Source: Candidatus Paceibacter normanii SCGC AAA255-P19
GTDB taxonomy: Bacteria > Patescibacteriota > Minisyncoccia > Minisyncoccales > Paceibacteraceae
Reading direction: 5' to 3'
Length of the DNA stretch: 64,000 bases
Assembly (NCBI GenBank): GCA_000398025.1
Contig: ASKX01000003.1
Coordinates: 6,143-70,142 of the forward strand
Below, in pieces: positions 2,014-58,841 of this stretch (the first letter of the stretch is position 1; each line of letters begins with the position of its first letter). A model generated the notes under the pieces. It was not told the DNA's origin and did no database searches. It saw only the letters and a program-made list of their open reading frames with translations. Made by a program: the position numbers and the translations under genes.

Positions 2014-3723
2014 ATGGCTCAAAAAATTTTAAAATTTTCTTTATCAGTTTTTTTGATTTTAGGGATGACTTTGAACAGTCAGATAGTTCTAGCTTGGACC
2101 GGTCCCCCCGGTCCCCCGCCCAGTCCTTGTCCGGCTGACTGGCCCGGCTGTTCTCCTCCTCTTAATGTTAGCTCGGCTGACCAAACCAAAGAAGGAGCTT
2201 TAACCGTTAAATCCTTTATTTACGGTGATGATATTCGGTTAGGATATTGGTCAGAGTCGGGCGAGGTAACGGTAGCTGGTGATATTGAAATTCATGACGA
2301 CTCAGAAAACCAAACTTTTCTCTTAGATGGTGATACTGGTAGATTGACCATTGGCGAATCAATCATCCTTACCCCTCGTTCTTCGCCTCCGATTGCTACC
2401 TGTTCAGCTAGCATTAAGGGTATGGTTTATTTTGATAGCGATGATGACCAACCCTATTATTGTAACGGTTCCGACTGGGTAAACTCCAAAGGTCCCACCG
2501 GTCCCACCGGCCCGACTGGTCCTGCCGGTCCAACCGGAGAGGGTAGCGTGGTCCCAGGTCCCACTGGCCCGACTGGTGCTCCCGGTCCTCCCGGAGGATT
2601 AGGTCCTACTGGGTTAACCGGCGCCACTGGCTCCACTGGCCCGACCGGCCTCACTGGCCCGACCGGTCCTACTGGCCCAACTGGCGCTGACAGTACAGTG
2701 CCAGGCCCAACTGGTCCTACCGGTCCTACTGGCTCAACTGGCCCGACTGGCCCAAAAGGGGCTACTGGGAATACAGGAGCTATTGGGGCTACAGGAGTAA
2801 CCGGACCTACCGGCCCAACTGGTGCTGACAGCGTAGTGCCTGGTCCCACTGGCCCAACTGGATCTACCGGCCCTACTGGGCCAACTGGCGCAGACAGTAC
2901 TGCCCCTGGACCTACCGGGTCAACTGGTCCAACTGGGCCAACTGGCCCTACCGGCGCTGATAGTATAGTACCAGGGCCTACCGGACCGACTGGTCCAACT
3001 GGTCCCACTGGCTCTTCTGGTCCTACTGGCTCTACCGGCCCAACTGGACCAGTTAATCCCGACGATTACGGTCGCTATAACGTGTCCGCTACTCTTTATG
3101 AAGGCACTTCTACTCTTTCTTCCATATATCAAGAAGACATAGGTTCAGACTGCGAAAGCGATAATTATGTTTACGGTGTTTTTAATTCTGGTACTTTGAA
3201 GTGCCGGGCTGATCAAGGTATTACTTCTGAATCAGATCCCCAAGTAGGCACTCTTACTAGTGGAAAATGGTGTACCACCAATGGCAGTACAGTTAATTGC
3301 ACCAGTGATGCCCCCAGCGGTGGAGGATATGATAGCTGTTCAGATATTGAGACAGATTGTAATTATGTTAATGAAAGTGGAGACGATATGAGTGGAGATC
3401 TCAAATTTACCCACTCTGATGCTGATATAAAAGCCCCTTCTTCTACTCTTTGGCTTCAGTATGGCACCGGGCAAAAAACTCACATTGATGGCGGGCTGGA
3501 AGTTGATGAATATCTTGAGATCCCTACTATGTCCTCTCGATCAGGCGTAGATGAGTCTGCCTATGTTCACGGTGATCACGGTACTTATAATTTAGGCGTT
3601 ACTTGTAGCTCTAGCAATCGGGGGAGGATTGGACTTAGCTACAATAATGATAAAAGCACTCACTCTCTCTGTTTTTGCGGAAAATACGAAGGTAGTTACG
3701 AATGGATGTGTTTGGTTTGGTAA
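2014..3723 (+). CDS. Secreted collagen-like (Gly-X-Y) repeat protein with Cys-containing C-terminal globular domain
   Basis: Signal-like N-terminus [20 protein letters not shown]. Long run of [13 protein letters not shown]-type triplets, broken by one GEGSVVPG and four GADSxxPG motifs. Non-repetitive C-terminal domain of about 230 aa. Confidence 0.8.
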
Positions 3724-21631: not shown

Positions 21632-21703
21632 GGTGGTCGTAGCTTAATGGCAAAGCTCCTGACTGTGGCTCAGGTGATGGGAGTTCGATTCTCCTCGACC
21701 ACC
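21632..21703 (+). tRNA. tRNA-His(GUG) with encoded G-1
   Basis: G-1 plus acceptor GTGGTCG/CGACCAC and C73. Anticodon loop CTGTGGC. T-loop TTCGATT. Confidence 0.9.
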
Positions 21704-21753
21704 CAAGCTGTAAGCGAAGGGGAAAGAAGAGGTTTATCTCTTCGACCACCCAA
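21703..21753 (+). repeat. R1-like fragment plus a duplicated tRNA-His 3' end
   Basis: CCAAGCTgtaAGCGAAGGGGAAA, then hairpin GAAGAG-gtttat-CTCTTC, then CGACCACCCAA. The last segment repeats tRNA positions 21696..21706. Confidence 0.6.
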
Positions 21754-22864: not shown

Positions 22865-22887
22865 ATACAATTAATTTTATCATAGAC

Positions 22888-22938
22888 GCAAGCCGCGTCA
22901 ATCGCGGTGAAGCGTGAAGATGAACAAAGTTCATCGCC
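22888..22938 (+). repeat. R1 double-hairpin repeat
   Basis: GCAAG-CCGCG-tcaat-CGCGG-TGAAGCGTGAA-GATGAAC-aaa-GTTCATC-GCC. Confidence 0.65.
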
Positions 22939-26670: not shown

Positions 26671-26676
26671 CAAAAA

Positions 26677-26727
26677 CCGAGCCCGCTTTGACGGGCGAAG
26701 GTGAAGAAGAAGAGAATCTTCTTCGAC
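26677..26727 (+). repeat. R1 double-hairpin repeat filling the tRNA-Cys/tRNA-Leu spacer
   Basis: CCGA-GCCCG-ctttga-CGGGC-GAAGGTGAA-GAAGAAG-agaat-CTTCTTC-GAC. Confidence 0.75.
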
Positions 26728-30892: not shown

Positions 30893-30917
30893 CTACCAAG
30901 ATTTTAATTTATTAAAA

Positions 30918-30951
30918 TCGCAGGTGGAAATGAAACTTTAGTTTCATTAAC
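30918..30951 (+). repeat. Decayed R1 half copy
   Basis: TCGCAGGTGGAAATGAAAC-ttta-GTTTCATTAAC. Compare GGTGGAGATGAAGCTTTAGCTTCATCGAC at 35229..35256. The differences are transitions that keep the stem. Confidence 0.55.
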
Positions 30952-35202: not shown

Positions 35203-35256
35203 ACCGAGCCCGCCCAAGGCGGGCGAAGGTGGAGATGAAGCTTTAGCTTCATCGAC
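35203..35256 (+). repeat. R1 double-hairpin repeat (full copy) filling the truD-rpsA gap
   Basis: ACCGA-GCCCGC-ccaag-GCGGGC-GAAGGTGGA-GATGAAGC-ttta-GCTTCATC-GAC. Confidence 0.8.
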
Positions 35257-36333: not shown

Positions 36334-36336
36334 ATA

Positions 36337-36389
36337 TCGAGCCCGCCTTAGCGGGCGAAGATGAAGATGAGAACGAAGTTCTCATCGCC
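36337..36389 (+). repeat. R1 double-hairpin repeat (full copy) upstream of rpsA
   Basis: TCGA-GCCCGC-ctta-GCGGGC-GAAGATGAA-GATGAGAAC-gaa-GTTCTCATC-GCC. Confidence 0.8.
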
Positions 36390-36450: not shown

Positions 36451-37152
36451 ATGCAGATTGTTTGGCATGGCCAATCCTATTTTCAAATCGAAGCTCGCCA
36501 TAATAAAAGCGAGCATACTTTAATTGTCATTGATCCTTTTTCTGAGGAAATTGGTCTGCGAGTCCCTAAACTTCAGGCCGATGTTTTATTAATTACCCAT
36601 CAGCATTATGACCATAACAATGTAAAAACGGTTTCAGGCACCCCCTTTTTAATTGATGGTCCCGGTGAGTACGAAATCAAAAAAGTTTTCATTCAAGGTA
36701 TTCCCGCCTGGCACGATCAAAAGCAGGGCAAAGAGCGAGGCTCCAACACCATTTATACCATTGAGGCCGAGGAGATGAAAATTTGTCACTTGGGAGATTT
36801 AGGCCAAAAAGAACTAACCGGAGAACAATTAGAGAAAATCGGCGATGTAGATATTTTAATGATTCCAGTCGGGGGCGTCTATACCATTTCAGCTAAAGAA
36901 GCCTTAGAAATAATGTCTCAACTTGAACCCAGAATAACCATCCCCATGCACTACCAACTTCCCAAATTGAAGATAAAATTAGACACCCGAGCGATAGCGA
37001 AGGGTGGAAAAGAAGATTTATCTTCTTTGAACGGCGTAGATAAATTTTTAAAGAGTTTAGGCATTAAATCAATGGAGCCCCTAAGCAAGCTTTCAATAAA
37101 AAGCAAAGATATTTCTCCAGAAGAGGCTAAAATAATTCTTTTAAGACCGTAA
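36451..37152 (+). CDS. MBL-fold metal-dependent hydrolase (UPF0173-like) carrying an in-frame R1 insert
   Basis: LITHQHYDHN motif, ICHLGDLG, and IPMHY. Confidence 0.75.
   Translation: MQIVWHGQSYFQIEARHNKSEHTLIVIDPFSEEIGLRVPKLQADVLLITHQHYDHNNVKTVSGTPFLIDGPGEYEIKKVFIQGIPAWHDQKQGKERGSNTIYTIEAEEMKICHLGDLGQKELTGEQLEKIGDVDILMIPVGGVYTISAKEALEIMSQLEPRITIPMHYQLPKLKIKLDTRAIAKGGKEDLSSLNGVDKFLKSLGIKSMEPLSKLSIKSKDISPEEAKIILLRP
36985..37029 (+). repeat. R1 45-nt unit in frame inside the hydrolase gene
   Basis: ACCCGAGCGATAGCGAAGGGTGGAAAAGAAGATTTATCTTCTTTG translates as TRAIAKGGKEDLSSL. Confidence 0.75.
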
Positions 37153-37445: not shown

Positions 37446-37449
37446 ATAT

Positions 37450-37500
37450 GCTCAATGAATCTTTGATTCATTTCGATCTTCAATAAATTTTCAATTTATC
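37450..37500. repeat. ATGAATC hairpin plus CAATTTY units upstream of gyrA
   Basis: GCTCAATGAATC-ttt-GATTCATTTCGA followed by CTTCAATAAATTTTCAATTTATC. Confidence 0.6.
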
Positions 37501-37503
37501 TCG

Positions 37504-39978
37504 ATGCCTAAAGAAAATCAAAAAATAAATAGAGAAACTGAAATAGGCTATATTAAACCCCGAGCCATTACCGAGGAAATGAAGGACTCGTACATTGACT
37601 ACGCTATGTCAGTGATTGTTTCTCGAGCTCTGCCTGATGTCAGAGATGGTTTAAAACCAGTCCATCGCCGGATTTTATACACGATGGGCGAGATGGGATT
37701 GGGGCACACAGCGAAATTTAGAAAGTCAGCAACAGTGGTGGGCGAAACAATGGGGAAACTGCATCCACATGGTGATGCAGCAATTTACGATGCCTTGGCT
37801 CGAATGGCTCAAGATTTCTCTTTAAGATATCCTTTAATTCAGGGTCAAGGCAATTTCGGTAGCATCGACGGAGATCCCCCGAGTGCGATGAGGTATAGCG
37901 AGGCGAAGCTTTCAGAAATCGGTGAGGAAACGCTCAAAGACATTGAGAAAAACACGGTTGATTTCGCTGACAATTACGACGGAACCCGTAAAGAGCCCAC
38001 TGTTTTACCTTCACCCCTTCCTCAATTGTTGCTTAATGGTTCTTTAGGAATTGCCGTAGGTATGGCTACCAATATTCCCACCCATAACCTTTCAGAAGTT
38101 TGCGAAGCCACCGACTATTTAATTGACCATCCCAAAGCCGATACTGAAGATCTCTTTCAGTTTGTCAAAGGACCCGATTTTCCTACTGGCGGCCAAATTT
38201 TTAATCAAAAAGAAATTATCGCTGCTTATTCTCAGGGTAAAGGACCAATTTTAACTCGAGGGAAAACGGAAGTTATAGAAAGGGAAAAGAGCGGCCGACT
38301 TCAGATTGTTATTACTGAAATTCCTTTCCAAGTTCAAAAGTCTTCTTTAGTTGAGCAATTTGCTCATTTAGTTCAAGAAAAAAAGATAGAAGGGATTAAA
38401 GATATTAGAGACGAATCTGACAAAGAAGGACTGAGAATTGTCATCGAGCTACAAAAAGATGCTTTTCCTCAGAAGATTTTAAACCGTCTTTATAAGTTTA
38501 CCGACCTCCAAAAAAGTTTTCATTTGAATATGTTAGCTTTGGTGGAAGGGATTCAGCCTCGAGTTTTAAACTTAGCCGATTTATTGAACTACTTTATTGT
38601 TCACCGTAAAGAAGTAGTTACCCGGAGAACAGAATATGAATTAGAAAAAGCCAAAGGAAGAGCTCATATTTTAGAAGGTCTACATAAATGCCTAGCTGAT
38701 ATAGATGCTGTAATAAAAACCATCAAAAACTCAGCCAATCGAGAGGAAGCCCAAAAGAATTTGATGAAGCGCTTTCGCTTAACTCAAATTCAAGCTAACG
38801 CCATTTTAGAAACCAAACTTTCAGCCCTGGCTAAGCTGGAAAGAAAGAAGATTGAAGACGAATTAAAAGAGCAGCGTTCCAGAATCAAAGAATTAACAGC
38901 CATTTTGAAGAGCCCTCAAAAAATCAAACAAGTTATTAAAAAAGAATTAAAAGAGCTAAAAGAAAGATTTGGTGACGAAAGAAGAACTAAAGTAGTTGTT
39001 CAAAAAGTTGGTGAGATAGCCGAAGAAGACCTAATTCCCTCCGAGGAAACAATCATTACTCTTACTCAAGGAGGTTACATTAAAAGAATTAACCCTTCTA
39101 TTTATCGTCTCCAAAAAAGAGGAGGCAAAGGAATTGCCGGCATGAAAACAGTGGGCGACGATGTGGTTGAGCATTTCTTGACCGCCAACACTCACGACAA
39201 CCTTTTATTCTTTACTGATTCAGGGAAAGTTTTTCGCACCCTAGTCTATGAAATTCCCGAAGGCGTCAGGGTGGCTAAAGGCCGGGGGTTGTTGAACTTT
39301 TTAGAAATTTCTCCTGAGGATAAAGTTCTGTGTATTTTGGCTTTGGGTAAGGAAGATGAAGTCTTGGGCACAAAATATTTAGTCATGGTCACCAAAAATG
39401 GTATAACCAAGAAAACTAGCTTGGAAGAGTTCGAGAATGTTCGCCGTTCAGGTTTAATAGCCATTAATCTAAGAAAAGGCGATGCCTTAAGAAAAGTAAG
39501 AAAGAGCGCTGACGAGGACGATATAATTTTAGCAACCAAGAAGGGCCAATCCATCCGCTTTAAAGAAAAAGAAATAAGGCCAATGGGTAGGCCAGCAGCT
39601 GGAATTAAAGGAATTAGATTAAAGAAAGGGGATGAGGTGATTGGCATGGATCCAATTCAAGCTAAAGACAAAAAGGAAAAACAGTATTTATTGGTCGTTA
39701 CAGAAAATGGCTATGGCAAAAGGACGGATTTGACAGAGTATCGACCCCAAGGAAAGGGAGGCTCAGGAATAAAAACAGCCCAGGTAACTCCCAAAACCGG
39801 CAACCTAATTACCTCTCGAGTTTTAACTGACGAGGAAGATTTAATTGTTATTTCTCAAAGAGGCCAAGTGATTAGAACAAAAATTTCTTCCATTCCCAAG
39901 TTGAGCCGGGCCACCCAAGGAGTAAGAATAATGGTCTTGGGAGAAGGAGATAAAGTGGCTTCCACTACCTGCCTATAA
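37504..39978 (+). CDS. gyrA: DNA gyrase subunit A
   Basis: [12 protein letters not shown], active-site region AMRYSEAKL, and C-terminal beta-pinwheel repeats. Confidence 0.95.
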
Positions 39979-40510: not shown

Positions 40511-40963
40511 ATGAAAAATATATCAATAACATTTTTAATCTTATTTGTTTTATTCGGTGGGATAGGCTTTATCCAGGGTGCTCCTTGTGATTCCTGTGAT
40601 AGTTCGGTTGAATGTGGTAGCGGTGAGAATTGTGTCGGGGGGGATCCCAGTACTCTTGATGTCAAAGAAGGCGTTTGCCAAGATCCTGACAATGTGGTCT
40701 TTTGCTCTCCTATTACTCATACCACTTTTGGCAGTTTGATTGATGCTATTATTAATTTTATCTTTAATATTGCTATTGTAGTTGTGCCTTTGATGGTTAT
40801 TATTGGCGCTTTCAATCTTTTGACAGCGGCTGGCGATCCAAAGAAGATTACCACCGGCAAAAACATTATTACCTACACCCTAATTGGCTTTGCTATTATC
40901 TTGCTTGCCAAAGGTGTTATTGCTATGATAGAAGAAGTGATAGGCATAAGAGTAGGAGGATAA
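40511..40963 (+). CDS. TrbC/VirB2-like small pilin-type membrane protein, Cys-rich ectodomain
   Basis: Signal peptide and a Cys-rich segment of about 40 aa. Then two TM segments around LLTAAGDPKKITTGKN, as in VirB2/TrbC-type pilins. Confidence 0.55.
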   Translation: MKNISITFLILFVLFGGIGFIQGAPCDSCDSSVECGSGENCVGGDPSTLDVKEGVCQDPDNVVFCSPITHTTFGSLIDAIINFIFNIAIVVVPLMVIIGAFNLLTAAGDPKKITTGKNIITYTLIGFAIILLAKGVIAMIEEVIGIRVGG

Positions 40964-40995
40964 AAAGGCCGATAAAATAATCAACAATTCAATTG

Positions 40996-41559
40996 ATGAT
41001 GAAAAAAACCTTTTTAACTTCGTTAATAATCAGCATCTTGGCTATGCTTTTGGCTTCAGCTGCTTTAGCTGGGCCAGTCAAGTGTTGTAAATTGGGAGCT
41101 GACATCAAAGGTTGGACAGGAGGCTACGTATATAGTGGCACGCTAACGAACACAGCTACCGGCGGCAGTGTAGCCTGTACGGCTACTACTCCTTGTAAAT
41201 GTAGTGACCCATCCTCTTTTGCCCAAGGCTGCACTCTTATCAAAGCAAACACCGCTGGGCCCAATGAGGCCGGAGTAACTTGCGAGGATGGGAATGCCCC
41301 TTATTACAAGACTAATTCCTGGGGAATGGTTTGCCTGCTTAATGGAATTGAAGTGGCGACTAACTGGACTTTTATTTTCCTGATGGTTTTGGTGGCTCTT
41401 TTCATTCTTTGGGGTGCCTTTAACATCGTCACCGCTGGCGGTTCTCCAGAAAAAGTAGGCACCGGTAGAAGTTACATTATCTACGCCCTGGTTGGTTTAG
41501 CTGTTGCCCTTTTGGCCAAAGCCCTTCCTTCGATTGTCCAAGCTTTACTGGGCGTCTAG
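40996..41559 (+). CDS. TrbC/VirB2-like small pilin-type membrane protein, paralogue with larger Cys-rich ectodomain
   Basis: Signal peptide and a Cys-containing domain of about 100 aa. Then IVTAGGSPEKVGTGRS between two TM segments. Same C-terminal architecture as 40511..40963. Confidence 0.55.
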   Translation: MMKKTFLTSLIISILAMLLASAALAGPVKCCKLGADIKGWTGGYVYSGTLTNTATGGSVACTATTPCKCSDPSSFAQGCTLIKANTAGPNEAGVTCEDGNAPYYKTNSWGMVCLLNGIEVATNWTFIFLMVLVALFILWGAFNIVTAGGSPEKVGTGRSYIIYALVGLAVALLAKALPSIVQALLGV

Positions 41560-41735: not shown

Positions 41736-42425
41736 TTATATTTTTACCTTAATTCTTCGCCTCTTTTCTCTTAAAATCTTGGGTATTCTAATGGTTAGAA
41801 TGCCTTCTTTCATCGTGGCTTCAGCTCGGTCGGGATCCACTTCTACTGGCAAGATTATTTCTCGAGAAAAGGAACCCCAATAACATTCTTGAGCAAAATA
41901 GTCACCTTCTTCTTCATAGGGTCTTTCTCGGCTGCCTTTGATAGTGATGATATCTTTTTCCAAAGCAATATCTAAATCTTCTGGCTTGACTCCGGCAATG
42001 GCTGATTGAACAACCAAATCAGTATCAGTTTGATAAACATCAATAGCTAATTCTCCTTCTGTCTCAAACCATTTTTCTTTAGTTTCCGCAGCTTTAGTAA
42101 AAGAGGGCTCCTCTTTAATTTCTTCTTTCGGCTCAGGTTCAAGTTCCGGTTCTGGCTCTGTTAAGTCTTCTTTTTGGGTAATTATTACCTTCTCCTCTTT
42201 TGGTTTTGTCAAAGAGGATAAATCCTCTTTTCCACCCTTCGCTGACACTCGGGTAAGCGATGAACTTCGTTCATCTTCACCCTTCACTGACGCTCGGGTA
42301 ACCGAAGTCTTCTGGCGAGAGATAGTTCCCCGCCTTCTTTTTGGTTTTTCTTCTCTTGCTTCTTCTACTTCTCCTTCTTCAATCCCCATTCCCTTTTTTA
42401 ATTTTTCAAAAAAAGAATCAGCCAT
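41736..42425 (-). CDS. Hsp20/alpha-crystallin family protein with extended N-terminal region containing two R1 units
   Basis: C-terminal ACD: LAIDVYQTDTDLVVQSAIAGVKPEDLDI...GILTIRIPK. The N-terminal ~130 aa are low-complexity. Confidence 0.8.
   Translation of the reverse strand: MADSFFEKLKKGMGIEEGEVEEAREEKPKRRRGTISRQKTSVTRASVKGEDERSSSLTRVSAKGGKEDLSSLTKPKEEKVIITQKEDLTEPEPELEPEPKEEIKEEPSFTKAAETKEKWFETEGELAIDVYQTDTDLVVQSAIAGVKPEDLDIALEKDIITIKGSRERPYEEEGDYFAQECYWGSFSREIILPVEVDPDRAEATMKEGILTIRIPKILREKRRRIKVKI
42210..42299 (-). repeat. Two tandem 45-nt R1 units in frame inside hsp20
   Basis: On the minus strand, unit 1 (42299..42255) translates as TRASVKGEDERSSSL. Unit 2 (42254..42210) translates as TRVSAKGGKEDLSSL. 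Confidence 0.8.
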
Positions 42426-43156: not shown

Positions 43157-43183
43157 GAGTTCGATGAGATAAATCTCATCGAC
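43157..43183 (+). repeat. R1 half copy spanning the valS stop codon
   Basis: GAGTTC-GATGAGAT-aa-ATCTCATC-GAC. Confidence 0.5.
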
Positions 43184-45254
43184 TACCGGGCCACTCTTCT
43201 ATTATTAAATATCTTTTATCTTTTATTGGAAGTTTTTGGTATATCTCTTCAGTGATGAAGGGGATAAACGGGTGTAGAAGTTTTAGAGAGGTTAGTAATA
43301 CATATAATAATACTTTTTGACTTTCAACTTTTGAACTTTGAACTTTGAACTTTTCTATGTAGATATCACAAAAATCATGCCAGAAAAAACTATAAAGCTG
43401 CCTAGCTGCCGCCCCAAACCTAAAACTCCCCAAATCCTTATTCACCGACTTAATTATTTTGTCTAACGCCTTCAGTATTTTTTTATCCGCCAAAGTTAAA
43501 TTTTTAGATTTGGAAATTGCCTGCCCCGTAGGAAGCCGAAGGCTTTCCTTCGGGGGAAATTGCATTAGCACAAACCGGCTGGCATTCCATACTTTATTAC
43601 AGAACTTCCTTCCCATCACAATGTTATCTTCCACAAATCGGATATCTTGCCCTCCCATTATTTGCCAGGCGATACCAAAACGAGTGGCATCAGCTCCATA
43701 TTTTTCACAAAGCACTAAAGGATCTATACCGGTTCCCAAAGATTTAGACATTCTTTTTCCTTCTCGGGTTAAAACTGTGGCGTGAATATAGACATCTTGA
43801 AAAGGAGCTTTTTTCATAAATTCTATTCCTGAAAATATCATTCTAGCCACCCATAAGTTTATAATTCCCCGGTCAGTAGAAAGCACATTGGTCGGATAAA
43901 ACGTTTTTAAATCTTTAGTTTTTTTAGGCCAGCCCAAAGTGGCAAAGGGCCAGAGAGCAGAAGAAAACCAAGTATCCAAAACATCATCTGCCCCTTTTAT
44001 TGGGATTTTATGGCCCCACCAGATTTGCCGGGAAATACACCAATCTCTAACGTTCTTTAACCAATTAAAATAAACTTTCTCCCAACGTTTAGGATGAAAC
44101 TTCACCTTTCCTGATTTTACTGCTTCAATCGCCGTTTTAGCTAATTGGTCCATTTTTAAGAACCGCTGTTCAGAAGGAATTAACTCCAAAGTGGTGCCAC
44201 AACGATAACATTTGGGCACTTGATGCGAATAGTCTTTGACTTTTTCTAAAAGTCCAAGTTTTTTTAAATCTTCAACTACTTTTTGCCGAGCTTCCAGCGC
44301 TTTCATTCCCTGATAAGGAAGAGGGGCAGCTTTGGTAATTTTCCCTTGCTCGTCGATCACCTGAACCTGCGGCAAATTATGCCTTTGAGAGATTTCATAA
44401 TCTGTTAAATCGTGAGCCGGAGTGATTTTTACTGCTCCCGTTCCAAATTCTGGATCAACTAATCTATCAGCAATAATAGGAATAACTCTATTAGCTAGAG
44501 GCAAAGTTACCTTTTCCCCAACCAATTTTTTATATCTTTTATCTTTAGGATTAACTGCTACAGCCGTATCTCCCAACATTGTTTCTGGCCTAGTCGTTGC
44601 GACGATAATAAAATTATCGTCGTCTTTTTTTATGGGATATTTTAGATACCAAAGTTTCCCTTTTTCTTCTTTATATTCTATCTCAAGGTCAGATAGTGAT
44701 GTTTGGCATCTTGGGCACCAATTAACCACCCTTTTTCCTTTATATATCCAGCCTTTTTTCTGATAATGCTGGAAGCAGGTTTGGACTGCTCTAACATATT
44801 CTTTATCCATAGTGAACCTGGTTCGCGACCAGTCACAAGAGCAACCCAACTTTTTGAATTGTTCTAAGATAATGTTGCCGTATTTCTCTTTCCATTGCCA
44901 AACTCTTTCAATAAATTGATCTTGGCCCAAATCAAACCTATTCTTCCCCTCCTTTTTTAATTCCCTTTCCACTACGTTTTGAGTGGCGATACCAGCATGG
45001 TCAGTGCCTGGCAACCATAAAGCCTTATATCCTTGAGTTCTCTTCCAGCGAATTAAAATATCTTGGCAGACAACATTTAAAGCGTGGCCCATGTGCAGGG
45101 AGCCAGTAATATTGGGCGGAGGAATCAAAATTGTGTAGGGCTTTTTCCTTTTGCCAGGTAGTTTATCTGGATTAAAAAAACTACCCTTTTCCCAAAGATT
45201 ATAAATTTTCCCCTCAACCTTTTTGGGCTCATAGATTTTTGGCAGTTTCGCCAT
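43176..45254 (-). CDS. valS: Valine--tRNA ligase (short, 692 aa)
   Basis: PPPNITGSLHMGHAL (HIGH), KMSKSLG (KMSKS), and an editing-domain TTRPETMLGD motif. Confidence 0.9.
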   Translation of the reverse strand: MAKLPKIYEPKKVEGKIYNLWEKGSFFNPDKLPGKRKKPYTILIPPPNITGSLHMGHALNVVCQDILIRWKRTQGYKALWLPGTDHAGIATQNVVERELKKEGKNRFDLGQDQFIERVWQWKEKYGNIILEQFKKLGCSCDWSRTRFTMDKEYVRAVQTCFQHYQKKGWIYKGKRVVNWCPRCQTSLSDLEIEYKEEKGKLWYLKYPIKKDDDNFIIVATTRPETMLGDTAVAVNPKDKRYKKLVGEKVTLPLANRVIPIIADRLVDPEFGTGAVKITPAHDLTDYEISQRHNLPQVQVIDEQGKITKAAPLPYQGMKALEARQKVVEDLKKLGLLEKVKDYSHQVPKCYRCGTTLELIPSEQRFLKMDQLAKTAIEAVKSGKVKFHPKRWEKVYFNWLKNVRDWCISRQIWWGHKIPIKGADDVLDTWFSSALWPFATLGWPKKTKDLKTFYPTNVLSTDRGIINLWVARMIFSGIEFMKKAPFQDVYIHATVLTREGKRMSKSLGTGIDPLVLCEKYGADATRFGIAWQIMGGQDIRFVEDNIVMGRKFCNKVWNASRFVLMQFPPKESLRLPTGQAISKSKNLTLADKKILKALDKIIKSVNKDLGSFRFGAAARQLYSFFWHDFCDIYIEKFKVQSSKVESQKVLLYVLLTSLKLLHPFIPFITEEIYQKLPIKDKRYLIIEEWPGSR
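43318..43355. repeat. ACTTTGA heptamer run inside valS
   Basis: TTGACTTTCA-ACTTTTGA-ACTTTGA-ACTTTGA-ACTTTTC, encoding KFKVQSSKVESQKV near the C-terminus. Confidence 0.6.
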
Positions 45255-49375: not shown

Positions 49376-50101
49376 TTATCCGCGAGCTACTGCTAAACCA
49401 ATAATTTCTTTGGAGCCGGCTTTTTTAAGGACTCGGGCGCACTCGGTCATGGTAGCGCCGCTGGTATAAACGTCGTTAATTAAAAGAATCTTTTTTCCTC
49501 TTACTGTCTCCGGGTTTTGGCAGAGAAACGCCCCTTTAATGTTCTCTTCCCTTTCCTTATCTGAAAGCTCTACCTGAGGTAGAGTATTTTTTATTTTTAC
49601 CAAAACATTATTCAACAGGGGGATTCCCCAAAATTGGGCTAAATTGTCACCAATCTCTTCTGCCTGGTTAAACCCTCGCCACCTTAATCTCTTTTTTCCC
49701 AGAGGCACAGGAACTAAAAAGAAATCAGTAAAGCTTGGCGGCTTCTCGATCAATTGAAAGTGTTCTATTATTAAAGAAGCTAAAGGTTCAGCTAGTTCCT
49801 TAATAAAGGGTTCGTATTTAAACTTTTGGATGAGTTTTCTAGTTAAAGGCTTTTGATAGTCGGCAGCAAAATATAAATCAGCCAGTTCAGCCGTGGAATA
49901 TGGTCGAAGAGGATAAATCCTCTTCTCCTCCCTTCGCTGTCGCTCGGGATTTTGATGAAAACCGGAAATCTCCAAGCATCCTTGGCAATCGTCGCAAAGA
50001 TAGCTACCTTCTTTTTGACAGCCAAGGCATTGTTTCGGAAAAAAGAGATCAAAAAGATAATTTTTAATTCCTTTCCCCATCGAAATAAATTGAAAATTCA
50101 T
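49376..50101 (-). CDS. comF: ComF-family phosphoribosyltransferase-like competence protein with in-frame R1 insert
   Basis: N-terminal zinc ribbon CLGC...CDDC. C-terminal PRT motif ILLINDVYTSGATM. Alternative start at M8 (50080). Confidence 0.8.
   Translation of the reverse strand: MNFQFISMGKGIKNYLFDLFFPKQCLGCQKEGSYLCDDCQGCLEISGFHQNPERQRREEKRIYPLRPYSTAELADLYFAADYQKPLTRKLIQKFKYEPFIKELAEPLASLIIEHFQLIEKPPSFTDFFLVPVPLGKKRLRWRGFNQAEEIGDNLAQFWGIPLLNNVLVKIKNTLPQVELSDKEREENIKGAFLCQNPETVRGKKILLINDVYTSGATMTECARVLKKAGSKEIIGLAVARG
49903..49950 (-). repeat. R1 unit inside comF, read in a different frame
   Basis: Minus strand reads ATCCCGAGCGACAGCGAAGGGAGGAGAAGAGGATTTATCCTCTTCGACC. It translates as PERQRREEKRIYPLRP. 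Confidence 0.75.
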
Positions 50102-50135
50102 TGAAGATTGAAATGAATTGAAAATTCATTGAATA
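50083..50135. repeat. R2-type AT-rich repeat/hairpin cluster in the comF/pilM2 divergent region
   Basis: The 14-mer TTGAAAATTCATTG occurs twice here and once at 24647..24660. Overlapping palindromes AATTCATT/AATGAATT. Confidence 0.65.
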
Positions 50136-50156
50136 TAGTATTTTTAATTGTATAAT
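50129..50156 (+). promoter_or_regulatory. Sigma70-like promoter of T4P locus 2
   Basis: TTGAAT, 16 nt, TATAAT. The SD AAAGGAG and ATG 50175 follow. Confidence 0.55.
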
Positions 50157-50174
50157 GATACAATAAAAGGAGCT

Positions 50175-51287
50175 ATGCTTTGGACGCCCTTAAAATTAAT
50201 TCCCAAAACATCTTTGGGAATAGACATTGGCACTTCTTCCATCAAGATAGTGGAATTGAGCAAATCTAGAGAAAGAGAGAGGTTAAAAAATTACGGAGAG
50301 ATAGAGGCCTCGGTCCTTTATCAGAAACCCTTTAGAACATTTGAAAAAAACACCCTTTTATTCTCTTCCCGAGATGTTGCCAAAGCCATAAAAGCAATAA
50401 TCGAAGAAGCAGGGATGAAGACCCGTCAGGCGGTTTTTTCCATCCCCGATTTTTCCAGTTTTTTTACCACTTTTGATCTGCCGTCCATGGCCAAAGAAGA
50501 ATTGTCTCAGGCCGTCACTTACGAAGCCAGGCGACACATTCCTTTACCTTTGGGAGAAGTAACCATTGACTGGGAAGTAATTGAAGGCCAGCTTTCCGAC
50601 CAGAAAAAGTCCTCTCTGAAGGTTCTTTTAGTTGCTGTTCCTAATGAGGTTATTAATCAATATCGAGAGATTGCCAAATTTTCTGAGCTTGAACTCTTTG
50701 CCCTAGAAGCCGAAGTGTTTGGTTTGGTAAGGTCGCTGGTTTCTGAAGATGAAAAAAGAGTAATCTTTTTGGTAGATATTGGCGCCCAAAGCACTACTTG
50801 TAGCATTATTGAAAAAAAGGTTCTTAAGAAGTCGCACAGCTTTAATGCTTCTGGAAACGAACTGACTGAACAGGTAGCTAAGAGTTTATCGGTTGGTTAC
50901 AAAACAGCCAAGGATCTCAAAGAGAAATATGGATTGGAGAATATTCCTCTTCCCCGAGCCCATCTCCCCGTTTCCTCTGAAAGTAAAAGCATTAGAGAAA
51001 TTCTTCTGCCCCTAATTGATATAATCTTAAGAGAAATTGAAAATGTAGCCAGTAATCTTTATCAGATAGAAGGAAAAGAGGTTCAAAAATTCATCATTGC
51101 CGGCGGCACAGCTCTTATCCCGGGATTGCCAGAATATTTCCAGGACTATCTCAAAAAGGAAGTAGAGGTGGCCGACCCTTTTGCTAAAATTTTTTACCCA
51201 CCAATTCTAGAAAAAACAATAAAAAAAATGGGGCCAGCTTATGCTATTGCCGTGGGTATGGCTCAGCGTGGGTTAGAACAAAAATAA
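50175..51287 (+). CDS. pilM: Type IV pilus assembly protein PilM (second copy)
   Basis: SLGIDIGTSSIKIVEL, VDIGAQSTTCSII and IAGGTALIPGL. Start set at the ATG that follows the SD. Confidence 0.85.
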   Translation: MLWTPLKLIPKTSLGIDIGTSSIKIVELSKSRERERLKNYGEIEASVLYQKPFRTFEKNTLLFSSRDVAKAIKAIIEEAGMKTRQAVFSIPDFSSFFTTFDLPSMAKEELSQAVTYEARRHIPLPLGEVTIDWEVIEGQLSDQKKSSLKVLLVAVPNEVINQYREIAKFSELELFALEAEVFGLVRSLVSEDEKRVIFLVDIGAQSTTCSIIEKKVLKKSHSFNASGNELTEQVAKSLSVGYKTAKDLKEKYGLENIPLPRAHLPVSSESKSIREILLPLIDIILREIENVASNLYQIEGKEVQKFIIAGGTALIPGLPEYFQDYLKKEVEVADPFAKIFYPPILEKTIKKMGPAYAIAVGMAQRGLEQK

Positions 51288-51289
51288 TC

Positions 51290-51820
51290 ATGGAAATTAT
51301 TCCCAAAGTAGCTCCCAAATTACCTCCTTGGCAAAATATTCTTTTTTATATTTCGCTAATCACCCTCTTGGTCGTCTTTTTGGGCTATTTTGTTTTGGAT
51401 TATTTTTTAAACAATGCTTCAAAAGCCCTGGAAGGCCTAGAGGAAACCTTGACTCAAGAGAAAACTTCTTCTGAAGTGGTTTTGGAAGAGAAAGTGTTTG
51501 GTTACCAGAAAAAAATTACTGATTTTTCCAAACTAATTGACGAACATCTTTTTACCTCCAATTTCCTTACTTTTCTAGAAGAAACTTGTCATCCTAAGGT
51601 TAAGTTTTCTCAACTTAGTTTAGACGCGGCAGAAAATAAAGCCGTTCTTTTGGGTGAAGCGGAAAATTTTTCCGCCTTGGGCCAACAGATTACAATTTTC
51701 AAGAAAGAGCCAGTTGTTGAAAATGTGAGTCTGTCAAATATCTTGATTGGCAAAATGGGAAAAGTTGATTTTGATTTAAAACTCTTCCTTCAACCCCAAC
51801 TATTTAGTTCAAATGAATAA
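51290..51820 (+). CDS. PilN-position single-pass membrane protein
   Basis: One TM (ILFYISLITLLVVFLGYFVL). Sits between pilM and the pilO-like gene. No INLLP motif. Confidence 0.55.
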   Translation: MEIIPKVAPKLPPWQNILFYISLITLLVVFLGYFVLDYFLNNASKALEGLEETLTQEKTSSEVVLEEKVFGYQKKITDFSKLIDEHLFTSNFLTFLEETCHPKVKFSQLSLDAAENKAVLLGEAENFSALGQQITIFKKEPVVENVSLSNILIGKMGKVDFDLKLFLQPQLFSSNE

Positions 51821-52337
51821 AATTATTACCATTTCCGTTTTATTTTTTCTCGCTTTAGCCTGGGGAATATTTTTTGTTGGCCCTAAGAATGAAGAATTTA
51901 GTTCAATAAAAAAAGAAATTGAGGCAAAGAAAACCGAGCTGCGGTATAAAGAAGAATATTTTACCAATTTAGAACAAGTTTCCCGAGAACTGGAAAATTA
52001 TGAAACCCAGCTCGCTAAAATTGATTCCACTCTTCCTGAAAGTCCGGAATTGCCCGCTCTCTTTGATTTTCTTCAAAAATCAGCTGCCCGTTCAGGACTG
52101 GTTCTAACAGGACTGAACGTGGTTTCGGCTATTTCTCTTCCGTCTGCCAAAGAAAAAACAGGGTTTAAAGAGACCCGTCTTGATTTAATTTTAACTGGTT
52201 CCTATTCAACGCTTAAAAGTTTTCTTTCTGAATTAGAAAAATCAGCTAGGCTGATTGAGGTGGAATTGCTTACTCTTGCTTCTGGCAAAGAGGGGATAAT
52301 TAGCTCTAAAATAAGAATAAAGGTCAACTCGTATTAA
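51813..52337 (+). CDS. pilO: PilO-like pilus assembly protein (second copy)
   Basis: One TM, a coiled coil (KKEIEAKKTELRYKEEYFTNLEQ), and LPALFDFLQKSA as in PilO. Confidence 0.65.
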   Translation: MNKIITISVLFFLALAWGIFFVGPKNEEFSSIKKEIEAKKTELRYKEEYFTNLEQVSRELENYETQLAKIDSTLPESPELPALFDFLQKSAARSGLVLTGLNVVSAISLPSAKEKTGFKETRLDLILTGSYSTLKSFLSELEKSARLIEVELLTLASGKEGIISSKIRIKVNSY

Positions 52338-52350
52338 AATTTAAATTATT

Positions 52351-52632
52351 GTGGCTGTCACTTTTCTCGAAAAAAGAAAAAGATTAAGATTTTTAATGCC
52401 GGTTTTGGCTGGAATAGTTTTAATTACAGCCGTTATTATTTGGCGAGGTTTTTTTGTCAAAGAAGAGCCCTTTCCTACTGAAGAACCTTCACGGCTAACC
52501 CACGAGGTAGAAATAAATTTCCAGGTCTTAGAAAGCACTAAACTGGAGAATTTACAAGTTTTTGAAAAAACCCCTCCCTTGGAAGAGGAAGCCGGTCGAG
52601 AAAACCCCTTCTTACCCTCTCAAAAAAAATGA
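52351..52632 (+). CDS. Small membrane protein, fourth member of the pilMNO operon (second copy)
   Basis: GTG start, one TM, C-terminal GRENPFLP. Compare YPDPFR in 21198..21497. Confidence 0.5.
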   Translation: MAVTFLEKRKRLRFLMPVLAGIVLITAVIIWRGFFVKEEPFPTEEPSRLTHEVEINFQVLESTKLENLQVFEKTPPLEEEAGRENPFLPSQKK

Positions 52633-54350
52633 GCTTAATTCAACAACTAGTCAAAAAAGGAGTTTTAGAAAAAGAGAAAGCCACCTCTTTAGAATTTGAG
52701 ATCAAAGAGAGTGGCAAGAAAGAAGAAGAAGTGATTTTGGAAAAGGGAATTACCAGCGAAGAGTCTTTGTTTAATCTAAAAAGTGAAAACTTAAAAATAC
52801 CCCTGAAAGAGGTAGCCGCTCAAGACATTTCTTTAGAAACTTTAGAGTTGATCCCTGAAGAAACCGCCAAGCATTATCAAATGATCCCCCTAAAGAAAAA
52901 AGAAAATCTTTTAGAGGTAGGAATGATTTATCCTGAAGATCTCAAAACCCAGGAAGCTCTGAAATTCTTAGCTCGCCGCGAGAGGTTTAGTTTCCGAGTT
53001 TTTCTAATTACCCCTACCACTTTTAACAACCTCTTAAAACAATACCGTACCTTAAGAAGAGAAGTTGGCCAGGCCTTAGAAGAGCTGGAGACCGAATTGA
53101 AGACTGAAAAGATTCGGCTTCCCAGAACAGCCGCTGAGTTTGAAAGGCTGGCTGAAGAAGCTCCGATCACCAAAATTGTGGCTGTAGTTTTAAGGCACGC
53201 CGTTGAAAGTAAGGCCTCGGATATCCATATTGAGCCCACTCGGAAGAAGTTAAGAGTACGTTTTAGATTATTAGGATTTCTTCATTCTTCCATCCTTTTG
53301 CCTTTAAGGATTCACCCCGCCGTAGTGGCTAGAGTTAAAATCCTTTCCAATTTAAAGATTGACGAAACTAGAATTCCCCAAGACGGGAGGTTTTCTACTA
53401 AAATAGATAATAAAGACATTGATTTTCGAGTCTCTACTTTCCCTACTACCTTAGGAGAGAAGGCAGCAATTAGAGTTTTAGATCCTTCGATGGGAATGAA
53501 AGAATTTGGAGAATTGGGGTTGGAAGGTAGAAATTATGAGACAACCAACCGAGCCACTAAAAAACCTTACGGCCTTATCTTGACCTGCGGGCCAACTGGC
53601 TGTGGCAAAACCACCACTCTTTATGCTTTCTTGACTCGCTTAAACAAAGAAGAAAAAAACATTGTTACCTTAGAAGATCCGGTGGAGTATTTTATTGAGG
53701 GAGTAAATCAATCCCAAATTAGGCCGGAAATCGGCTACGACTTCCCGATTGGCTTGCGGCACGTTCTTCGTCAAGACCCCGACATTATTATGGTGGGTGA
53801 AATCCGAGACGAAGAAACGGCTTCCTTAGTTATCCATGCAGCCTTAACCGGCCACTTAGTTTTGTCCACCCTTCATACCTCCAATGCTTTAGGAGCTATT
53901 CCCCGACTGATTGATTTGGGAATTCAACCTTATTTGATTTCTCCCACTTTGAATTGTATTGTTTCCCAAAGGTTGGTTAGAAGACTGTGTGATGATTGTA
54001 AAAAGAAGGTTAGGCCTAAAAAAGAGATTAAGGATTTAATCCTTAAAGAGGTAGAAAATCTTCCTCCCCAAGTTAAAAAAACAGTTAAAGTCCCCAAACC
54101 TTTAATGATTTGGGAGGCCCAGGGCTGTAAAAAATGTAACAATGAAGGTTTCAGCGGTCGGGTTGCTCTTTTCGAAGTTTTAGAAATGTCTGATAACTTA
54201 GAAGATATAATTTTAGAAATGCCTACTGTAGAAAAAATCGCTGGAGAGGCGAAGCTGCAAGGTATGGTTAATATGAAACAGGACGGCATCCTCAAGGTTT
54301 TAAGCGGAACAACGACTATTGAGGAAATTTTAAGAACAACCGAAGAATGA
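52629..54350 (+). CDS. pilB: Type IV pilus assembly ATPase PilB/GspE family (second copy)
   Basis: Walker A GPTGCGKTTT, LRQDPDIIMVGEIRD, and tetracysteine CDDC...CKKC. Confidence 0.9.
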   Translation: MSLIQQLVKKGVLEKEKATSLEFEIKESGKKEEEVILEKGITSEESLFNLKSENLKIPLKEVAAQDISLETLELIPEETAKHYQMIPLKKKENLLEVGMIYPEDLKTQEALKFLARRERFSFRVFLITPTTFNNLLKQYRTLRREVGQALEELETELKTEKIRLPRTAAEFERLAEEAPITKIVAVVLRHAVESKASDIHIEPTRKKLRVRFRLLGFLHSSILLPLRIHPAVVARVKILSNLKIDETRIPQDGRFSTKIDNKDIDFRVSTFPTTLGEKAAIRVLDPSMGMKEFGELGLEGRNYETTNRATKKPYGLILTCGPTGCGKTTTLYAFLTRLNKEEKNIVTLEDPVEYFIEGVNQSQIRPEIGYDFPIGLRHVLRQDPDIIMVGEIRDEETASLVIHAALTGHLVLSTLHTSNALGAIPRLIDLGIQPYLISPTLNCIVSQRLVRRLCDDCKKKVRPKKEIKDLILKEVENLPPQVKKTVKVPKPLMIWEAQGCKKCNNEGFSGRVALFEVLEMSDNLEDIILEMPTVEKIAGEAKLQGMVNMKQDGILKVLSGTTTIEEILRTTEE

Positions 54351-54402
54351 TGAGAACCTTGTCCTCATCATTACCTTCGCTTTTATAAATAAAAGCTCGG
54401 TG
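54340..54402 (-). repeat. R1 repeat (AT-rich hairpin 1 variant) between pilB2 and the receiver gene
   Basis: Minus strand reads CACCGAGCT-tttatttataaa-AGCGAAGGTAAT-GATGAG-gacaaggtt-CTCATC-ATTCTTCGG. Confidence 0.65.
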
Positions 54403-54423
54403 AATAATAAAAATATGGTGAAG

Positions 54424-54793
54424 ATGATGAAGAAAATTTTGCTAGTTGAAGACGACCCATTTTTAATAGATATTTACACCACTAAATTGAAAGAAGTGGG
54501 ATTTTCGGTAGAAGTGGCTACTGATGGGGAAGAAGGAGTGAAAAAAGCTAAAGAGCTTTCCCTCGATTTAATAGTTTTAGATATTGTCCTTCCTCAAATT
54601 GATGGTTGGGAGATTTTAAAAAAGATTAAAGCCCATGCTCCCCTAAAAAATACCCCGGTGGTTATCTTGTCTAATCTTGGCCAAAAAAAATGAAGTCGAA
54701 AAAGGAATTAAATTGGGAGCGGCTAAATATCTAATCAAAGCTCACTATACCCCGAGCGAAGTAATTGCGGAAATTAAAAAAGTTTTACATTAA
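54424..54793 (+). CDS. Single-domain response regulator, reading frame broken in an A8 run
   Basis: MMKKILLVEDD...DLIVLDIVLPQIDG. The ORF stops at 54693. Removing one A (54683..54690) restores NEVEKGIKLGAAKYLIKAHYTPSEVIAEIKKVLH and a stop at 54793. Confidence 0.7.
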
Positions 54794-54796
54794 TTT

Positions 54797-55867
54797 ATGA
54801 ACAATTATCAGAAACAACTAAAAGAATTGCTGTCGATTACTGTCCAAGAGCAATCCTCGGATTTACATTTTTCAATCGGTCACCCGCCGGTTTTACGTTT
54901 ATCAGGCAGATTGATTCCTTTAATGAAAAGAAAAAACCTCTCGCCAGAAGACCTAAAAGGTTTAGCTGCAGCTTTAATGGCAGATGACCAAAAAGCCAGA
55001 TTTGCCGCCCAAAAAGAAGTAGATTTTTCCTATAATTTCACTGAAAAAGGAGCTCGCTTCCGGGTAAATATTTTTCTTCAAAGCGGAGAAGTTTCTTGTG
55101 CTCTTCGTTTAATTCCAGCCAAAATCCGAACTGTTGAAGAGTTAAATCTTCCGCCGGTTTTGCATGAGTTCACCAGATCCTCTCAAGGGTTTGTTTTAAT
55201 TACCGGGCCTTCCTCTCAAGGAAAATCTACTACTTTAGCCGCCCTTGTCGACGAAGTCAATCATACTCGGACCGACCACATTATCACTATTGAAGATCCT
55301 ATTGAATATGTTTTTACTGACGACCGGGCCATCATTGACCAGAGAGAGGTTTATCAAGATACTCTTTCTTTCTCTCGGGCTCTGCGTTCTACTTTCCGCC
55401 AAGACCCCGACGTAATTATGGTGGGTGAAATGCGCGACCCTGAAACCATCGCCACCGCTATTACAGCTGCTGAAACCGGTCATTTAGTTTTTGCTACTCT
55501 TCATACTAATTCCGCTGCCCAAACCATTCACCGAGTAGTTGATAGTTTTCCTTCTTCCCAGCAAGACCAAATCCGAGCTCAATTGTCGGGTTCTCTTTTG
55601 GGAGTGGTTTCCCAACGACTCATCCCTAGAATTAAAGGCGGCTTGATTCCAGCCTGCGAGGTAATGATTTCCAGCCCCGCTGTAGCTAATCTAATCCGAG
55701 AGAACAAAATTCATGAGCTTCCCTTAGTAATTGAAACTTCAGCTGAAAGAGGAATGATCTCTTTGAACCGAGCTCTGGCTAATTTAGTAAAAAGAAAAGA
55801 AATTTCCCTAGAAAACGCCCTAACTTATTCCTTGAATCCAGCCGAGCTAAAGATGCTCATCCGCTAA
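54797..55867 (+). CDS. pilT: Twitching-motility retraction ATPase PilT
   Basis: 356 aa. Walker A GPSSQGKSTT, FRQDPDVIMVGEMRD, and GHLVFATLHT. Confidence 0.9.
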   Translation: MNNYQKQLKELLSITVQEQSSDLHFSIGHPPVLRLSGRLIPLMKRKNLSPEDLKGLAAALMADDQKARFAAQKEVDFSYNFTEKGARFRVNIFLQSGEVSCALRLIPAKIRTVEELNLPPVLHEFTRSSQGFVLITGPSSQGKSTTLAALVDEVNHTRTDHIITIEDPIEYVFTDDRAIIDQREVYQDTLSFSRALRSTFRQDPDVIMVGEMRDPETIATAITAAETGHLVFATLHTNSAAQTIHRVVDSFPSSQQDQIRAQLSGSLLGVVSQRLIPRIKGGLIPACEVMISSPAVANLIRENKIHELPLVIETSAERGMISLNRALANLVKRKEISLENALTYSLNPAELKMLIR

Positions 55868-57072: not shown

Positions 57073-57082
57073 TTTTCCACTT

Positions 57083-57165
57083 GCCCCGTTAGAGTGGAGC
57101 ATTATACAATAAAGTAACTTGATTATTTTTAGAGGGCCCGAGAATAAGGGTTACTCTAACGGGGC
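57083..57165 (+). promoter_or_regulatory. 13-bp long-range stem enclosing 57 nt, followed by a U-tract, upstream of the first pilin gene
   Basis: GCCCCGTTAGAGT (57083..57095) pairs perfectly with ACTCTAACGGGGC (57153..57165). CTTGCTTTTTTATTTT follows. Confidence 0.5.
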
Positions 57166-57200
57166 TTGCTTTTTTATTTTGATATATTAGAATAAATTAA

Positions 57201-57692: not shown

Positions 57693-57739
57693 AAACTTTT
57701 ATAAAGAAGGTCGAGAAATAATAATCAACTATTACTAAT

Positions 57740-58183: not shown

Positions 58184-58248
58184 GTTTTTCAAAAATAACA
58201 AAGGTCGAACCTAACTTGTTAATGATTATTAATCGGTAATTTGTTATC

Positions 58249-58764: not shown

Positions 58765-58780
58765 GAGAGTTTAGGGAGTC

Positions 58781-58808
58781 AAAAAACCGGCGGAAGCCGG
58801 TTTTTTCT
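58781..58808 (+). terminator. Rho-independent terminator after the pilin genes
   Basis: AAAAA-ACCGGC-ggaa-GCCGGT-TTTTTC. Confidence 0.75.
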
Positions 58809-58841
58809 TTGAATTAAAAATGTTAAAATCTAAGAATAATC

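Follow-up and report, generated by a model that had tools for sequence, protein, structure and literature searches.

The stretch of DNA analysed here, 64,000 nucleotides (nt) of Candidatus Paceibacter normanii SCGC AAA255-P19 (contig ASKX01000003.1, positions 6,143 to 70,142), is referred to below as the window and contains a gene for an Hsp20 protein of the alpha-crystallin family in which two units of a short palindromic repeat, R1, lie in frame. The open reading frame (ORF) joins a conserved, invariant N-terminal motif, SFFEKL..GM, through a long linker to the alpha-crystallin domain (ACD), and the two units are arranged head to tail on the coding strand, codon 43 beginning at 42299 and codon 72 finishing at 42210 (Table 1). 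Two 45-nt units had been placed at codons 43–72 of this minus-strand gene in a preliminary description made from the sequence alone, and their coordinates and both translations were confirmed. The claimed retention of the R1 core was borne out too, ACCCGAGYGTCAGYGAAGGGTG being present with 0 mismatches in both units, and hairpin 2 was recovered by folding, as 7 bp closed by a 3-nt loop in unit 1 (GATGAAC GAA GTTCATC; RNA GAUGAAC/GUUCAUC) and, in unit 2, as 8 bp with a loop of 4 nt (AAGAGGAT TTAT ATCCTCTT; RNA arms AAGAGGAU/AUCCUCUU). Hairpin 1 of each unit has two stems, ACCC/GGGU and one of 2 bp, with a GA/GAA internal loop between them and a terminal loop of 4 nt, and the folding free energies are -14.2 kcal/mol for unit 1 (z -2.4) and -15.6 kcal/mol for unit 2 (z -2.9). 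Two other identities considered for these structures were rejected: the GA/GAA internal loop of hairpin 1 does not fit the consensus motifs of K-turn and loop-E elements, and an RNA thermometer is not compatible with hairpins situated 130–220 nt inside the ORF, away from the ribosome-binding site.

Unit 2 probably runs on for another 3 nt, to 42207, which would make the insert 93 nt (31 codons) instead of 90, because the copies in the MBL and ComF genes described below, at which the boundaries of the 8-bp/4-nt subtype can be fixed, measure 48 nt and a tandem spacing of 48 nt occurs elsewhere. The insert had also been assigned to the N-terminal region upstream of the ACD; this agrees with the position of the Pfam domain and with the AlphaFold model, in which pLDDT is below 50 at aa 47–123 and aa 13–126 are without secondary structure. 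On this model the insert sits in the disordered linker between the N-terminal motif and the ACD. Its predicted tryptic peptides include GEDERSSSLTR and VSAKGGKEDLSSLTKPK.

The two units share 65% identity over their whole length and 46% within the hairpin-2 half. For unit 2, identity to the MBL copy and to the ComF copy is 85% in each case, and the hairpin-2 half of unit 1 matches that of an intergenic copy at 22886 with 88% identity. Because both units resemble other copies in the window more than they resemble each other, they belong to different subtypes and are not tandem duplicates; the pair could stem from two separate arrivals or be a composite of two subtypes. The identical subtype order was found in a Nealsonbacteria chromosome (L079), within a RecJ-like gene of the DHH family.

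Across the window, the core with at most 3 mismatches has 4 matches, compared with 0 in 100 dinucleotide-preserving shuffles. A covariance model (CM) was built from 27 copies chosen for having a hairpin (alignment A5), and it recovered 10 copies in the window: 4 intragenic ones scoring 55–71 bits (two in Hsp20, one each in the genes for an MBL-fold hydrolase and ComF) and 6 diverged intergenic ones at 26–43 bits. In most of the latter, hairpin 1 is lengthened, with GC-rich stems in three, and the unit reaches 53–57 nt; the copy at 35203, for example, has hairpin 1 stretched to the GC-rich stem ACCGAGC-CCGCC..GGCGG-GCGAAGGT. Among the 27 copies, pairing in hairpin 2 is kept while its sequence varies, with compensatory changes at 5 of the 8 pairs, and the closing pair of hairpin 1 alternates between A-U, U-A and U-G; over both hairpins, 6 pairs show compensatory changes. 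These compensatory changes are still informative despite the pre-selection of copies for a hairpin. R1 is a real repeat family with two forms.

Table 1. The Hsp20 gene and the R1 copies of the window.
Feature	Positions	Strand	Size or score	Remarks
Hsp20 (alpha-crystallin family) gene	41736..42425	-	229 aa	ORF; Pfam HSP20 aa 131–227, E 4.7e-20; N-terminal motif aa 4–16, disordered linker ~aa 18–123, ACD aa 131–227
R1 unit 1 in Hsp20	42255..42299	-	45 nt; CM 54.6 bits, E 1e-14	aa 43–57, TRASVKGEDERSSSL
R1 unit 2 in Hsp20	42207..42254	-	45–48 nt; CM 65.4 bits	aa 58–72(73), TRVSAKGGKEDLSSL(T)
R1 copy in MBL-fold hydrolase gene	36985..37032	+	48 nt	in frame in gene 36451..37152 (+); TRAIAKGGKEDLSSLN
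R1 copy in ComF-like gene	49902..49949	-	48 nt	in frame in gene 49376..50101 (-); other sense frame, PERQRREEKRIYPLRP
Intergenic long form	35203..35256	+	42.7 bits	takes up the spacer that separates the TruD gene from the S1-protein gene
Intergenic long form	26675..26727	+	38.7 bits	between two tRNA genes
Intergenic R1 copy	21701..21746	+	36.8 bits	begins at the 3' end of a tRNA gene
Diverged intergenic R1 copy	22886..22938	+		hairpin 2 nearly that of Hsp20 unit 1
Diverged AT-rich intergenic R1-like copy	30895..30951	+	27.2 bits	2 nt from the start codon of the minus-strand neighbour
Diverged intergenic long form	36336..36389	+	25.9 bits	between the S1-protein and MBL genes

Three intergenic copies (35203, 36336, 30895; and 22886) start exactly 2 nt from an opposite-strand start codon, in the arrangement …TTCAT-NN-ACCGAGC…, and TCAT-N2/3 also stands 5' of many R1 copies in other genomes. 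This motif may belong to the element itself, reflect a target preference or supply a donated start codon.

Comparison with orthologues revealed that R1 copies coincide with extra codons. The MBL-fold hydrolase of the window has 233 aa, compared with 217 aa in most of the 120 relatives listed, and where R1 lies it is longer than its orthologues by precisely 16 codons (48 nt). The closest of them (P0122, 82% identical) passes directly from …KLKTKTKLD to GVDKFLK…, where the window protein reads …KLKIKLD-TRAIAKGGKEDLSSLN-GVDKFLK…; at the DNA level, where the two genes share 84% nt identity along the part that aligns, the 48 extra bases of the window stand between TTAGAC and GGCGTAGAT. The insert falls within a low-confidence loop of the structure model (aa 169–192, pLDDT <50). 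Five MBL relatives (P0134, P0140, P0148, P0156 and P0165; alignment A2, columns ~213–245) carry unrelated inserts of 15–30 residues, such as PAGQAGIPVAKGG and GERRGRSPLRPP, and the loop that hosts R1 appears to be a general hotspot for short inserts.

Exactly 16 codons are also extra in ComF, between the zinc ribbon and the PRT domain: relative P0241 (62% identical) passes from LEISGFHRN to YSTQNL, and the window protein reads LEISGFHQN-PERQRREEKRIYPLRP-YSTAEL. P0241, with no insert at this site, has an extra segment of its own, PEPQRRVEKNEHVLREAQAPRAS, at about residues 100–130, which resembles R1 in the PERQRR frame. Two TopA orthologues likewise differ by exactly one 16-codon R1 (KVYPKK-GDESKDSSLPFANARV-FEETELP versus KVYPMKFEETELP). 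As for Hsp20, the best-matching relative, P0007, reads RVRIASRQKASVGPEEKITINQP, compared with RGTISRQKTSV, 30 aa and TKPKEEKVIITQKE in the window protein. None of the 119 Hsp20 relatives listed carries the insert peptide, which speaks against the possibility, raised in the preliminary description, that the peptide is ancestral in Hsp20 orthologues. As to the number of extra codons in Hsp20, the peptide is missing from the relatives listed, and 31 codons are likelier than 30.

R1 was also found in the Hsp20 linker of other genomes. Relatives P0068, P0093 and P0111 contain …SSPFAVARE… in the same linker, which was confirmed in the DNA to be R1 on the opposite strand. Locus L121, which has the gene order of the window (class I aminoacyl-tRNA synthetase (aaRS), PrsW protease, Hsp20, type IV secretion system (T4SS) pilin), carries an R1 in the Hsp20 linker at 10127–10173 (61 bits), and L122 carries two there, at 393–436 and 501–547. 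An R1-blind sample was assembled from 80 metagenome loci fetched via the Hsp20 protein alone (422 kb; model hits of at least 30 bits). Fifteen of its 45 non-duplicate hits fell within the Hsp20 ORF, which makes up an estimated one eighth or so of the sampled sequence; 12 were antisense and 3 sense. R1 relics in Hsp20 linkers resemble each other more than their flanks do, and other relics are plainly decaying.

At L121, an identical 47-nt R1 pair in inverted orientation, one copy in the linker at 10127–10173 (-) and the other just downstream at 10773–10819 (+), brackets most of Hsp20; the pair suggests that copying was recent, and it could serve as a substrate for inversion. A second GC-rich hairpin segment, CCCCGAAGGAAAGCCTTCGG…CGGGGCAGGC, lies at 43505–43560 (-) in the class I aaRS gene of the window (43176..45254) and encodes PPKESLRLPTGQA, a peptide that is also present in the N-terminal linker of Hsp20 relatives P0007, P0008, P0010 and P0046. 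This segment looks like another intragenic repeat family.

A scan with the 19-nt core over one genome per species, in which many matches are due to chance in GC-rich genomes, gave ~35 matches with both the core and hairpin 2. They occur in metagenome-assembled genomes (MAGs) under the labels Nealsonbacteria, Parcubacteria and Saccharibacteria, the complete chromosome CP179888 among them; the lineage labels of MAGs are unverified, and several of the 'Saccharibacteria' seem generic (between L093 and a Nealsonbacteria MAG, TopA identity is ~71%). Homologues of the window proteins have the source names Gribaldobacteria and Patescibacteria. Some 8-kb loci carry 5–8 copies. Well-conserved short copies in other MAGs lie mostly within ORFs of at least 100 aa (29 of 37), and among their host genes are those for TopA, UvrB, Mfd, TsaD, a protein of the DHH/RecJ-like type, pol III delta, GpsA and FolD. 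Tandem spacings of 45, 48 and 51 nt were observed. The antisense frame …SSSPFAxAR(V/E) is used by 20 of the 29 genic copies, the sense frame (T/S)RAxAKG… by 8 and the sense frame PERQRR…, that of the ComF copy in the window, by 1; two frames account for 28 of the 29. The antisense frame …LHPSLTLG is open in 27 of 27 copies, is hydrophobic and is used by 0 of 29, and the probability of zero use, if the three commonly open frames were equal, is ~(2/3)^29, or ~8e-6. Multiple-of-three lengths, stop-free frames and a preference for the hydrophilic frame make sense only if the insert is translated, and we infer translation of the inserts mainly from these indirect biases.

The 19-nt core, CCCGAGCGNNAGCGAAGGG, also occurs in identical form within different lineage-specific repeats, for example beside GTCATTGCGA…GCAATC arms. 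It was found in Thermodesulfatator autotrophicus (L003, L005, L031, L042, L069, L108, L110), in one Gammaproteobacteria MAG (L029, L035, L038, L041, L043, L071, L081), in Chloroflexota (L049, L088, L097) and at ~10 sphingomonad loci, and its hairpin may be a widely shared module. Five low-GC putative viral contigs from IMG/VR (L203, L204, L206, L207, L208) contain R1-like two-hairpin units, ATCCCGAGCGATAGCGAAGGGAT + AGATGAAC..GTTCATCT, in AT-rich spacers, a weak hint of a route for horizontal spread; a blastn search in distant mode of phage GenBank records with the Hsp20 locus gave no match.

We consider it probable, at roughly three chances in four, that R1 is a non-coding, two-hairpin interspersed repeat of Patescibacteria, similar to repetitive extragenic palindromic (REP) sequences and Rickettsia palindromic elements (RPEs), which is tolerated in genes as a translated disordered peptide. 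New copies would arise at new genome sites and, in gene-dense genomes, most landings would be intragenic. Survival within a gene would need three things: a length that is a multiple of three (45, 48 or 51 nt), a stop-free frame, and a hydrophilic peptide placed in a loop or disordered segment. In Hsp20, copies of two subtypes would be read through as 30–31 extra residues between the N-terminal motif and the ACD, and they would probably affect the chaperone little. Spread could occur by some transposition that uses the hairpins, perhaps through single-stranded DNA and an HUH/Y1-type enzyme, R1 itself being non-autonomous. IS200/IS605 and REP-associated tyrosine transposase (RAYT) systems employ hairpin-dependent single-strand transposition; the lack of terminal inverted repeats (TIRs) and of a clear target duplication in R1 is as expected from this type of transposition, and the occurrence of G-T/U-G pairs on one strand only fits it as well.

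The RPE-like behaviour that the preliminary description had proposed is upheld by the orthologues without the insert, by the unrelated host genes and by the recurrence of R1 in Hsp20 linkers. RPE-1 to RPE-10 measure ~100–150 bp and are confined to Rickettsia, RPE-4 and RPE-6 being REP-like (Ogata et al. 2000, cited after PMC10969869 and PMC3733652). RPEs and R1 are both palindromic non-coding interspersed repeats, often in frame in unrelated housekeeping genes of small-genome, host-dependent bacteria, and both are read, at positions that the fold tolerates, as additional peptide and are present or absent between orthologues. In contrast to RPEs, R1 has units of 45–48 nt, a third of the RPE-1 length, that form two small hairpins; it is found in either orientation, with a different preferred frame for each, and is spread over many Patescibacteria MAGs. 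It is set apart from RPE-1 to RPE-10 by length and host, and homology is not expected. Intragenic REPs were reported in several species by Di Nocera et al. (2013), many of them in replication and repair genes, with dimers encoding 20–30 aa (PMC3733652). Intragenic palindromic repeats are known well beyond Rickettsia, and what is new is the R1 family and the lineage; a search of open-access full text found nothing linking Patescibacteria, the candidate phyla radiation (CPR) or Parcubacteria to palindromic elements, MITEs (miniature transposable elements with inverted repeats), REP sequences, REP doublets forming hairpins (REPINs) with their RAYTs, or RPEs, which is not proof of absence.

With REP sequences of the GTAG/CGTC super-families and with REPIN/RAYT systems, R1 shares its short, high-copy hairpin repeats, often in dimers or clusters and in some cases intragenic, G-T pairs in stems, and many copies just outside ORF ends. 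The ends of R1, A/TCCC at the 5' side and YG(A/C)C at the 3' side (reverse complements GTCG, GGCG, GTCA), differ from REP ends in having no GTAG/CGTC tag; CGTC occurs in alignment A5 only in certain variable loops. Moreover, each R1 unit contains two different hairpins, and its short form is mostly intragenic (29/37), whereas REPs are mostly extragenic. Palindrome-associated transposable elements (PATEs), which derive from IS200/IS605, have subterminal hairpins, no TIRs and no target-site duplication. R1 resembles PATEs and MITEs in being small and non-autonomous, and the PATE features fit the MBL site; MITEs have TIRs, target-site duplications and lengths of 70–300 bp, unlike R1, which is shorter and has neither TIRs nor a clear target-site duplication; for R1, neither a conserved target sequence nor a partner transposase was established.

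Several points weigh against a transposed, passively tolerated repeat. Identity to even the nearest Hsp20 relatives is only ~60% and the linker varies, which leaves the boundaries of the Hsp20 insert approximate, and its translation is something we infer, from the single ORF joining the N-terminal motif to the ACD and from the length and frame biases. The proportion of paired cells across the 27 aligned copies, 98.6%, is inflated by their pre-selection for a hairpin. Neither a RAYT gene nor a transposase was identified among the 24 window proteins scanned against Pfam, a small sample of about one third of the window ORFs; no TIRs stand at the ends of alignment A5, and no clear target-site duplication was seen, with at most 2 nt (AC) at MBL, the sole empty site readable in DNA. 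Copies are also better conserved than their host genes, which would not be shown by plain decaying junk. The TopA genes of L013 (1238–3418) and L093 (5691–7826) share an R1 at the same codon, identical at 43 of 45 nt (96%) and at 15 of 15 third positions, compared with 72% of nt and 52% of third positions gene-wide; the probability of 15/15 at 52% is ~5e-5. Nucleic-acid constraint, gene conversion among copies and parallel insertion are possible causes of this slow evolution.

Such conservation bears on two readings in which R1 is more than tolerated. In the first, R1 would be a pan-Patescibacteria structured element specialised for intragenic life and kept under nucleotide-level constraint by a dedicated enzyme or host function, a proposal that we advance tentatively and regard as unlikely. 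Multiple-of-three lengths in both hairpin subtypes, one hydrophilic frame per orientation and a longer intergenic sister form point to intragenic specialisation, and the frozen synonymous sites of the shared TopA insert, together with the reuse of the 19-nt core in distant phyla, point to nucleotide-level constraint.

In the second, R1 would be a functional nucleic-acid motif kept by the host, such as a DNA or RNA structure to which a conserved factor binds, for instance in topology, replication, recombination, or RNA processing or stability, and the peptide would be a by-product. We consider this doubtful, and grant it the weight we do because the causes of the slow evolution of copies could not be separated. 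It is in line with a hairpin-1 core that is almost invariant over many MAGs with different lineage labels, with a hairpin 2 whose structure is kept while its sequence varies, with the shared TopA insert (96% of nt and 15/15 third positions, against 72% and 52% for the gene) and with the likeness of R1 relics in Hsp20 linkers beyond that of their flanks; the intergenic copies that exactly fill spacers beside start codons and tRNA genes and the 19-nt core as a module in repeats of distant phyla can be read in the same way. However, presence and absence differ among close orthologues, copies are scattered over unrelated genes in both orientations, certain copies are clearly decaying, and the conservation is equally explicable by gene conversion or mobility requirements. 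Nor does R1 match an Rfam family: searched with Rfam 15 at the gathering score, the whole window yielded tRNAs only, and the best hit to the locus at E up to 10 was RefA5, with 17.6 bits against a gathering score of 91 bits (E 0.22).

Removal of the insert before the mature protein is formed, by RNA-level excision or protein splicing, is very improbable. R1 is strongly structured as RNA, and CPR rRNA genes carry intervening sequences; however, 45–48 nt is much below the size of group I or II introns and 15–16 aa much below that of inteins, there is no Rfam match, and excision would not demand the multiple-of-three lengths, stop-free frames and two hydrophilic frames that were all seen.

Local tandem duplication of the low-complexity Hsp20 linker by replication slippage, with a coincidental or ancestral likeness to other loci, would account for two adjoining, head-to-tail units of the same length in a linker that is low in complexity and varies in length, and true R1 tandem duplicates do exist, in L082 and L077, where identical units are spaced by 45 and 48 nt. 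We find it barely credible, given that the Hsp20 units are only 65% identical (46% in the hairpin-2 half) and have better matches elsewhere (85% for unit 2, 88% for the hairpin half of unit 1), that no relative among the 119 listed has the peptide, and that the core occurs 4 times in the window against 0 expected. An assembly or binning artefact, in which a repeat was collapsed or chimerically joined into the Hsp20 contig, has a negligible chance of being correct: the assembly is of metagenome type and repeats are classic misassembly sites, but the frame is preserved on both sides of the insert and R1 lies in frame in dozens of independent ENA, JGI and NCBI assemblies, including the complete chromosome CP179888.

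The window also contains separate AT-rich intergenic hairpin repeats, ATGAATTGAAAATTCAT…AATGAATCTTTGATTCATT (families D4 and I2–I4; 11316–11363, 22815–22862, 37447–37523, 50057–50137), which are often paired and are possibly terminators. A collagen-like run of 9-nt repeats (2489–3051) lies in the ORF 2014..3723, a type IV pilus cluster at 50148–61052 encodes PilM, PilO, PilB, PilT, PilC, pilins and a prepilin peptidase, two T4SS-pilin genes occupy 40511–41559, and there are 19 tRNA genes. The pilus cluster, T4SS pilins, tRNA set and collagen-like ORF are typical CPR content.

CPR/Patescibacteria genomes are tiny and usually called streamlined. If R1 is indeed an interspersed repeat tolerated as translated peptide, it would be present about once per 6–10 kb, mostly in essential genes such as those for TopA, UvrB, Mfd, TsaD, aminoacyl-tRNA synthetases and Hsp20, and genome reduction and intragenic selfish DNA would be found together beyond Rickettsia. 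Such a repeat would account for many of the odd low-complexity CPR peptides that disturb alignments, orthology calls and structure prediction, would serve as a marker to type strains and to follow gene flow from one CPR lineage to another, and would amount to a natural experiment on the protein sites that tolerate insertions of 15–16 residues. The slow evolution of R1 copies, in turn, raises the question of a conserved enzyme or host function acting on the hairpins.

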